Below are positions 38,622 through 40,006 of a DNA stretch of 48,953 nt, piece by piece (position 1 is the stretch's first letter; each line of letters begins with the position of its first letter). The stretch comes from a virus. Taxonomy: Duplodnaviria; Heunggongvirae; Uroviricota; Caudoviricetes. The notes under the pieces are model-generated. The model was not told the DNA's origin. It saw nothing but the letters and a program-made list of their open reading frames with translations, and did no database searches. The stretch lies in IMG/VR virus record IMGVR_UViG_2579778802_000015. One strand, written 5' to 3'. The translations under genes were made by a program, and so were the position numbers.

Positions 38622-38667
38622 CAAGAAGCACAGGTATTAACAATAACTTTCATGGTGATACGAATCA

Positions 38668-39210
38668 GTGGCTAAAAAAGGCGACTTTAAGCCTACCCAG
38701 AAAGAGGTTGACCAAGCTATTACTCGCTTGAAAAAAGTAACTTTTAGCGGAGTTACATGGACCGGAAGTGAGGGACGAACCCCAATCTGGTTTAAATTGG
38801 ATCTCAAAGCTTTTGATGAAATTGGCAACCCAATCACAGGCATAAGATTTATGCTTCACTGGCGTCCTCCTATCGTTGAAGGGGTGGATATAGTGAAGAT
38901 TTCATTTGTGATGTTTCTTCATGACAGGCGCATTTACGCGCTTGATCCGTACCCTGCGGATAACAAGCCACACCGTAATAAATCTATAGTGAACCATCCA
39001 GATTTTGTTGAGGTGGCTCGAGGTCCTCACTATCACATGTACTTCGAATCAGCTGGGGAAGAAATTGCACTTAAGCTTGAAACGAACATCAAGCCAGATG
39101 ATTTTTTTGGCTACTGGAATTATTTTTGCGAGGCGCTTAATATCATATATGAAGGCAGCCCACCTTTACCTAATCAAGATAAATCAGGTCAGTTATCATG
39201 GGAAATGTAA
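38668..39210 (+). CDS. Hypothetical protein A (180 aa, GTG start) in the rexA slot
   Basis: MAKKGDFKPTQKEVDQAITRLKK...; co-oriented with cI, 46 bp downstream; no resemblance to RexA. Confidence 0.7.
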   Translation: MAKKGDFKPTQKEVDQAITRLKKVTFSGVTWTGSEGRTPIWFKLDLKAFDEIGNPITGIRFMLHWRPPIVEGVDIVKISFVMFLHDRRIYALDPYPADNKPHRNKSIVNHPDFVEVARGPHYHMYFESAGEEIALKLETNIKPDDFFGYWNYFCEALNIIYEGSPPLPNQDKSGQLSWEM

Positions 39211-39974
39211 CGTGTTCAACAGTCATATCTAAGCTCGGGTTTGAATGCCACCCAATGAGCGACACGTTGCTGCGCGTTATTAGTCCATTCACATACTACG
39301 ATGATTGTGAGCAGATAAGTGTATTCGTTCAAGAGATGAGTGGTCAGTATAGGGTTACAGACTACTGCGATACATTGATGAATATTGAATCACGCGGCAT
39401 CCACCTGACTAAAAAGAAAATTGATCTGATCAGGTCATCACTCGCTTCGCAAGGAATTTCATTAAATGACTCTGGAGAGATATCTGCGTGGGCAGATGAG
39501 TCGTCCGTTGGACAGGTAACTGCAAATGTTATTCGTGGTGGGATTCTTGCATCCGCCCAAACTGCTGATTGGTATGCTGAGGTCAAAGACGATAAGTTCG
39601 AAAAATGTGTAATCAGTTACTTAAAATCAGCAGGGCTTGGGAAGCGACTAGCCTTAAAGGAAAAAGTGAAAGGTATTAGTGGGCATAACATTACTGTTCC
39701 GTTAACGCTAAGGAATGAGTCTCGACTAATACCACCAAAACGCGGGTTTACGGTAAGCCTTGCCAGCAGTAAGGGATGGAATACTGCCCACTCAACAGTT
39801 GGGAAGATTGTTGACTTAAGTCAGGTCGTTCCTGACATAAACAATAGATTTGTAATAGTTGACAGCGATGGGTTAACACCTGAGCTACAGCAACTATCAC
39901 TACTATTTAATGATACCGCACGAGTGTTGCCATTCCATACCAGAGACTCTTGGATTGAGTCTCTGGTAGCCTAG
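39198..39974 (+). CDS. Hypothetical protein B (258 aa; alternative start at 39255) in the rexB slot
   Basis: Overlaps gene A by 13 bp; followed by an intrinsic terminator; no resemblance to RexB. Confidence 0.7.
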   Translation: MGNVTCSTVISKLGFECHPMSDTLLRVISPFTYYDDCEQISVFVQEMSGQYRVTDYCDTLMNIESRGIHLTKKKIDLIRSSLASQGISLNDSGEISAWADESSVGQVTANVIRGGILASAQTADWYAEVKDDKFEKCVISYLKSAGLGKRLALKEKVKGISGHNITVPLTLRNESRLIPPKRGFTVSLASSKGWNTAHSTVGKIVDLSQVVPDINNRFVIVDSDGLTPELQQLSLLFNDTARVLPFHTRDSWIESLVA

Positions 39975-39977
39975 AAA

Positions 39978-40006
39978 AACCCGGCCTCAGCGCCGGGTTT
40001 TCTTTG
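39978..40006 (+). terminator. Intrinsic terminator ending the cI-A-B transcript (timm-like)
   Basis: ACCCGGC-ctcagc-GCCGGGT hairpin followed by TTTCTTTG. Confidence 0.75.

Follow-up and report, generated by a model that had tools for sequence, protein, structure and literature searches.

The window analyzed here, the whole 48,953-nucleotide stretch of tailed-phage DNA (Caudoviricetes) in IMG/VR record IMGVR_UViG_2579778802_000015, carries a lambda-type immunity region in which the slot that holds rexA and rexB in phage lambda is filled by a different pair of genes, here termed A and B. The slot opens after the cI repressor gene of the lambda immunity type (37908..38621, + strand), whose product shares 234 of its 237 residues with lambda cI and is labeled a LexA family protein by RefSeq in an identical Escherichia coli prophage. 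A 46-nucleotide spacer (38622..38667, + strand; read directly from the sequence) separates cI from gene A (38668..39210, + strand), which begins with a GTG codon preceded, 9 nucleotides 5' of it, by a Shine-Dalgarno-like GGTGA, and codes for 180 amino acids. Gene B (39198..39974, + strand), coding for 258 amino acids, lies in the same orientation and overlaps the end of A by 13 nucleotides (ATGGGAAATGTAA; 39198..39210, + strand), implying translational coupling of the two. In identical E. coli prophages, RefSeq annotates both coding sequences from the same start codons, naming A "hypothetical protein" and B "DUF1828 domain-containing protein".

Alignment with lambda defines the two junctions of this cassette. 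Homology extends past the cI stop codon by a few bases and then breaks off within the cI-A spacer; it restarts at about 39975 (seven bases past the B stop) and spans the terminator and the leftward operators and promoter (OL1-3/pL) to about 40255. The right-hand junction is an intrinsic terminator (39973..40006, + strand) identical to the one lying 3' of rexB in lambda, comprising a hairpin at 39973-40003 followed by a U-tract (-17 kcal/mol; z = -3.8 versus shuffled sequences). The downstream boundary of the slot is formed by OL1-OL3 and pL (40158..40228, + strand), with operators identical to those of lambda and pL at 40193-40221 (TTGACA, 17 nucleotides, GATACT). A-B therefore replaces rexA-rexB exactly, junction to junction, from the cI stop codon to the lambda terminator. 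All features of an earlier sequence-only reading of this DNA, made without database searches, were found where it had placed them: it correctly described a cI nearly identical to that of lambda, a lambda-type OL/pL, two co-oriented overlapping open reading frames (ORFs) and an intrinsic terminator after them, which proves to be lambda's own sequence, and the replacement at the rexAB junctions that it proposed is exact in the alignment.

In the lysogen, transcription of cI-A-B would start in the divergent OR/pR/pRM control region on the other side of cI (37808..37907, no single strand). Identity to lambda across cro-OR is 97%, with OR2 and OR3 exactly those of lambda, and pR has a consensus match at 37860->37832 on the - strand. 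OR1 differs by a single substitution at 37843 (relative to lambda, TATCACCGCcAGAGGTA to ...GCtAG...), and a second lambda difference lies 8 nucleotides away, at 37851, in the OR1-OR2 spacer. By extension from lambda biology, pRM is the promoter that would be used for the cI-A-B transcript. Scanning the cI-A spacer for promoter-like or terminator-like sites yielded none; the simple terminator scan used also failed to call the lambda-type hairpin after B.

Both A and B are real genes. Purifying selection is evident on A, with a ratio of nonsynonymous to synonymous divergence (dN/dS) of about 0.05, and on B, with dN 0.05 and dS saturated in comparison with the 91% allele; the two are consistently paired and diverge together. 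Neither shows kinship to the genes that they replace: the best BLASTP match of A and B to lambda RexA has an E-value of 0.6, no alignment with RexB was obtained, and hydropathy likewise rules out such kinship, with no membrane segment in A (maximum 19-residue hydropathy 1.22) or B (0.79). Searches of NCBIfam with both proteins returned nothing, PHROGs placed them in two families of unknown function, and searches of the family libraries recovered no known toxin or antitoxin family for either. Profiles built from a single clade or from a broad alignment detected no relatives among solved structures by sequence; matches to a His-tag and to a designed Kelch repeat were rejected as chance.

B is a two-domain protein. 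Its N-terminal domain is a DUF1828 domain (PF08861; 40.9 bits versus a cutoff of 22, residues 30-112), which adopts a secretion-chaperone-like fold, and its C-terminal domain is DUF1829-like, with the alpha-beta-beta-beta-alpha-beta core of the PD-(D/E)xK fold. The Pfam DUF1829 model (PF08862) itself has no match to the window B at E <= 1, and is carried by B homologues at about 25% identity. Tabulated results of the DefensePredictor study (Science 2026, PMC13092281) bear on this assignment: DUF1829 is placed in the Pfam clan PDDEXK, and an HHpred match to DUF1829 is listed for the sister protein of B (98.8% probability). Across the family, Cys6, Cys17, Pro30, Asp55, Asp58 and Gly67 of the N-terminal domain and Gly159, Ser161, Lys203 and Asp206 of the C-terminal domain are invariant. 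In a broad alignment, the distant members display a canonical-looking series of motifs (EAE ... GxSxxxHTFDF ... IDVI ... MRKxGD). In the clade of the window, the Asp of FDF on beta2 aligns with Pro168 and that of IDV on beta3 with Lys181, and both acidic positions are lost; this assignment is based on the alignment and is of moderate confidence. Family-wide, the beta2 position may be D, N, Q, H or P. The presence of Pro168 and Lys181 at the acidic positions leaves the window clade without support for a plain nuclease effector and sets B apart from PD-(D/E)xK nucleases such as the nuclease domain of Can2/Card1 and the restriction enzymes of the NgoMIV/Cfr10I type, relative to which a nuclease activity of B appears doubtful or non-canonical.

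A belongs to a small and fast-evolving family, with 22 clusters at E <= 1e-3 among 1.84 billion representatives. His121, His123 and Phe153 are invariant and His102, Gly119, Lys22, Arg88 and Pro168 nearly so, with the three conserved histidines falling in a motif of the form H-x-N ... G-P-H-x-H. The Pfam family DUF6978 (PF22398) was recovered below threshold (23.6 bits versus a cutoff of 29.6), and just 5 of the 22 family members match it at E <= 0.01. The AlphaFold2 model of A is poor. In several metagenomic contigs, A-like ORFs of about 116-156 amino acids that overlap the start of B were left uncalled by the source gene predictions (upstream of B in loci L090, L091, L093 and L095, and also in L101-L120); hence, protein databases under-represent the A family.

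We then considered the genomic settings of the pair. Among deposited phages, a B homologue lies just 3' of a repressor gene, with a small ORF between the two, in Escherichia phages ev207 and ev017, Pseudomonas phage phPA-G and Burkholderia phage phi644-2; for DNA nearly identical to the cassette, deposited phage genomes match in the terminator alone, which is lambda DNA. A scan of IMG/VR viral contigs gave 80 loci, in every one of which A is directly upstream of B and a co-oriented gene is found upstream of A-B. At an identity level of 85%, these upstream genes fall into 27 clusters; they range from 100% to less than 30% identity with lambda cI; among 10 representatives scanned, eight combine HTH_3 with Peptidase_S24, one has a helix-turn-helix domain only and one gave no match. 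A repressor gene precedes A-B in all 80 of these contigs, and at least 25 repressor types are involved. The arrangement reaches well beyond the close relatives: in ten look-ups of distant homologues with 14-22% identity to B, seven are prophage loci with an S24 repressor gene upstream of the pair (Cupriavidus, Eoetvoesiella, Burkholderiaceae and metagenomic contigs), and synteny is kept at B identities of 20-25% in Cupriavidus, Eoetvoesiella, Burkholderiaceae and the Pseudomonas and Burkholderia phages. An A-like ORF overlaps the start of B in every distant locus of the set examined for it. In some prophages, extra small genes are seen between the repressor and A-B, coding for a 113-amino-acid ORF (L050 383-724), a 162-amino-acid ORF with a hydrophobic N-terminus (L091 5965-6453), TM2 and VasI-domain proteins (L096 4547-5491) and ORFs of 52 and 210 amino acids (L099 4363-5190), which indicates that the slot can accumulate several cargo genes.

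Two alleles of the cassette circulate in E. coli, the window type and a sister type, which are 51% identical in B and 40% identical in A. Each has been seen beside lambda cI as well as beside a 71%-identical cI, and both end at the same lambda terminator; apart from lambda and the E. coli prophage of the window itself, 35 loci have a 28-mer of this terminator 3' of B. The occurrence of both alleles at the same flanks with different cI genes is cassette exchange at conserved flanks, and the pair passes among prophages whose repressors are unrelated, independently of the repressor type. Of 5426 complete E. coli genomes, 61 carry the window allele, including O104:H4 outbreak strains, and 241 the sister allele, including Nissle 1917 and the species type strain ATCC 11775; rexAB is found in 99, versus 302 for the two cassette alleles together. 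No plasmid copy of A-B was found among 72,556 plasmids. In Nissle 1917, the sister cassette (cI-like -> A' -> B') is located in "prophage 3", next to icd (L100 3537-6307; NZ_CP022686.1 4784150-4795456). A result reported for a Nissle 1917 "phage repressor pr" (PMC5987069) was considered and rejected as evidence on the cassette, the primers (L100 3619-3636 and 3861-3879) mapping to a coding sequence of the CII family and not to cI, A or B; the authors of that study postulated a further unidentified protective factor in the Nissle prophage.

Outside prophages, a scan of species-representative genomes, which used the distant clade only and is biased towards it, produced 20 loci, with an A-like ORF upstream of B in 18. 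In this set and among other non-prophage loci, A-B also adjoins restriction-modification (RM) genes: the gene directly upstream encodes a Type IIG RM enzyme in two Gallionellales genomes (L109 and L120, at 1137-1238 bits in PADLOC) and the Type I specificity subunit HsdS in a Rhodocyclaceae genome (L105), and a PIN_12 protein and a type I RM system adjoin the pair in L095. A SIR2_2 protein is encoded near the pair in L093. The L120 locus, which starts with the Type IIG RM enzyme, further contains a HipA-like kinase gene next to the pair and a small adjacent ORF (9042-10605, - strand, just past A-B), along with a DUF6680 protein and a serine recombinase, and looks like a compact defense island in its Gallionellales genome. 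Directly beside the pair, on the opposite strand, a gene of the uracil-DNA glycosylase (UDG) family is observed in two non-prophage chromosomal loci (L093 8010-8525 and L098 4906-5424), an adjacency that may reflect either a conserved flank of the insertion or a functional connection.

The interval between cI and N is a recognized hotspot of mosaic diversity, harboring rexAB in lambda and bstA in prophage BTP1 (PMC8585504). A-B resembles lambda RexAB, which is the best-known cargo of the repressor operon and itself still poorly understood (PMC8585504), in being a two-gene cassette of the same orientation in the same slot, delimited in both cases by the cI 3' end and the lambda terminator, and presumably on the same pRM/pRE transcript. 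It differs not only in lacking sequence similarity to RexA or RexB but also in that A and B are both soluble, unlike RexB, which is described as an ion channel (PMC8585504), and in the combination of chaperone-like and nuclease-fold domains in B. BstA likewise is encoded directly 3' of a prophage repressor gene with a presumably shared promoter (PMC8585504); in contrast to A-B, it is a single protein, unrelated to either product.

A PADLOC search for known defense families gave hits, all weak, to the candidate PDC-M24 alone (Payne et al., bioRxiv 10.1101/2024.01.29.577857), which was proposed because it lies inside BREX, DISARM or type I RM loci. PDC-M24 too consists of two genes, the smaller one in front (FAM_00129>>FAM_00065; profiles of about 146 and 255 amino acids), and A and B are adjacent and co-oriented in the same order in the window and its relatives. 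A weakly matches PDC-M24A over its C-terminal third only (E = 3.8e-4, 18.8 bits), and B weakly matches PDC-M24B over residues 5-169 (E = 5.4e-7, 27.5 bits); distant B homologues match the latter with E-values of 3.5e-5 to 8.7e-12. The copy in the window differs from PDC-M24 in lying in a prophage immunity region and not within BREX, DISARM or RM loci, whereas its relatives in L105, L109, L120 and L095 do adjoin RM genes. Independently, DefensePredictor lists the sister allele (WP_000968518.1/WP_001062368.1), which is flanked by the same lambda-type junctions as the window cassette, among its "predicted novel defense genes", scoring log-odds of about 5-6, and the cluster representative for WP_001062368.1 is WP_001074607.1, the A protein of the window (PMC13092281). 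Two independent computational screens flag the family as one of defense, the one by weak matches and the other by prediction. Together with the known cI-N hotspot, these flags make the idea of a defense function unsurprising to a specialist.

Taken together, these observations lead us to favor the interpretation that A-B is probably a lysogen-expressed, two-protein cytoplasmic anti-phage module, which is mobile among repressor operons and can also be used outside prophages. As an accessory module of the repressor operon of temperate phages, it would protect the lysogen from other phages by exclusion or abortive infection; transcription with cI from pRM (and pRE) would ensure that it is made in the lysogen, and A and B, both predicted to be cytoplasmic, may act as a complex. 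The candidacy of the cassette as an anti-phage or exclusion module, put forward by the sequence-only reading, is supported by the RM adjacency, by the two screens and by the survey of recurrence 3' of repressors (all 80 viral contigs, spanning at least 25 types of repressor, and 7 of 10 distant homologues), with function and transcription still inferred; the dissimilarity to RexA and RexB that it noted holds as well. Nor was homology of A or B to characterized non-defense proteins found in our searches. That reading went too far in calling the cassette unknown, for the family is annotated and had already been predicted as defense, and in seeing no recognizable motif, given the DUF1828 domain of B and the sub-threshold DUF6978 match of A.

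How such a module might work can be sketched with considerable reserve, and the following model is more likely to fail than to hold in its particulars. The chaperone-like DUF1828 domain of B, with its invariant Cys6, Cys17, Asp55 and Asp58, may be a partner-binding or sensing domain that binds A or a phage product. The nuclease-fold domain of B may bind nucleic acid or act in a non-canonical fashion, instead of performing standard Mg-dependent cutting, and A, with its invariant histidine pair and conserved third histidine, could be a regulated effector or an antitoxin-like partner. The activity would then be supplied by the histidine cluster of A along with the remodeled nuclease-fold domain of B. 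As there is no membrane component, the mechanism of A-B differs from that of RexAB.

Several points weigh against an anti-phage role. The PDC-M24 matches are weak (19-28 bits), and none of six distant A homologues gives any match to PDC-M24A. The pair is absent from the tested and validated tables of the DefensePredictor study, in which the one experimental link of DUF1829 to defense is DS-6B of HipAD, with a different partner and architecture (PMC13092281), and we found no experimental study of the A-B pair in the literature. Neither a recognizable fold nor a relative in the PDB was found for A, and the case for B as a standard nuclease is weakened by the absence of the canonical acidic residues in the window clade. 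Several non-prophage loci have housekeeping neighbors, among them mutY, PhoX and a histidine kinase. Finally, the very strong linkage to repressor genes might be explained instead by a function in the lysogeny switch.

The last of these points is the basis of the best-surviving alternative, in which A-B tunes its own lysis-lysogeny switch or induction, for example through cleavage or stability of the repressor, and does not mediate exclusion. The pair is tied to repressor genes, mostly of the autocleavable S24 type, over large evolutionary distances, and there are precedents for switch-modulating genes in the repressor operon: lambda RexA is reported to bias the switch, and Hex of phage 434, itself expressed on the pRM transcript, to block the RecA-mediated cleavage of the repressor (PMC11077077, PMC3564112). 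However, the pair also follows non-S24 repressors (L042 and L049), the same allele sits beside different repressors, which argues against a repressor-specific partnership, and elsewhere the pair occurs without any repressor, either beside genes for RM, PIN, SIR2 and HipA proteins or in an ordinary chromosomal context. We regard this alternative as improbable.

Still less probable is a toxin-antitoxin-like addiction module that stabilizes the prophage or island and has no specific anti-phage role. A two-gene operon in which a small upstream gene overlaps a larger downstream one, carried on mobile or variable regions, would suit such a module, and a DUF1829 domain is present in the antitoxin-like partner of the HipA-like system DS-6 (HipAD) (PMC13092281). 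Against it stand the failure of A and B to match any known toxin or antitoxin family and the lack of copies among the 72,556 plasmids, which is unusual for an addiction module; moreover, toxin-antitoxin systems often act in defense anyway, and this explanation to that extent overlaps with the anti-phage one. It is equally improbable that A-B is lysogenic-conversion cargo acting in host physiology, such as DNA repair or stress, unrelated to phages. In its favor are the adjoining UDG-family genes in two chromosomal loci and the mutY gene about 0.65-1.6 kb upstream of the pair in three Pseudomonas genomes, but these neighbors resemble conserved chromosomal insertion flanks and not operon partners, and although the low G+C content of the pair is like that of many morons, the direct adjacency to RM genes and the predictions from machine learning and from embedding favor defense.

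Beyond the cassette, homology to lambda stops at about 40255, and the region of N and nutL (40470-40853 and 40255-40470) is not of the lambda type. The N of the window shares 37-40% identity with that of ev207-type phages. RefSeq leaves N unannotated in its identical prophage (L085), with just a 69-nucleotide "regulator, incomplete" pseudogene fragment marked at its 3' end. On the other side, direct repeats of 30-49 nucleotides in 2-4 copies, 68-100% identical, are situated at 36171-36256 and 36949-37101, that is, inside and upstream of a 362-amino-acid ORF of the replication region (35830-36918, - strand), which also encodes a (QE)n run; these could be iteron-like origin repeats.

Returning to the anti-phage interpretation of A-B, its implications follow from the place that the pair occupies. 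Only a few units of a prophage are expressed in every lysogen, the repressor operon among them, and the position of A-B within it is the same in prophages of Beta- and Gammaproteobacteria. In complete E. coli genomes, the family is commoner than RexAB in the slot between cI and the terminator. The 1.3 kb cassette has natural junctions, and rexAB and the sister alleles provide natural knock-out comparators at identical flanks. If it acts in defense, the phage susceptibility of carrier strains such as O104:H4, Nissle 1917 and the type strain, and with it phage therapy, would be affected, and a new protein architecture would be added to bacterial immunity. We tentatively raise the possibility of a new and widespread prophage defense in which B, with its chaperone-like and remodeled nuclease-fold domains, holds or senses through A, a protein with a histidine triad and a new fold, without a membrane component. 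If this is true, A-B would hold a major place in repressor operons throughout the Proteobacteria, at about three times the frequency of rexAB in E. coli.

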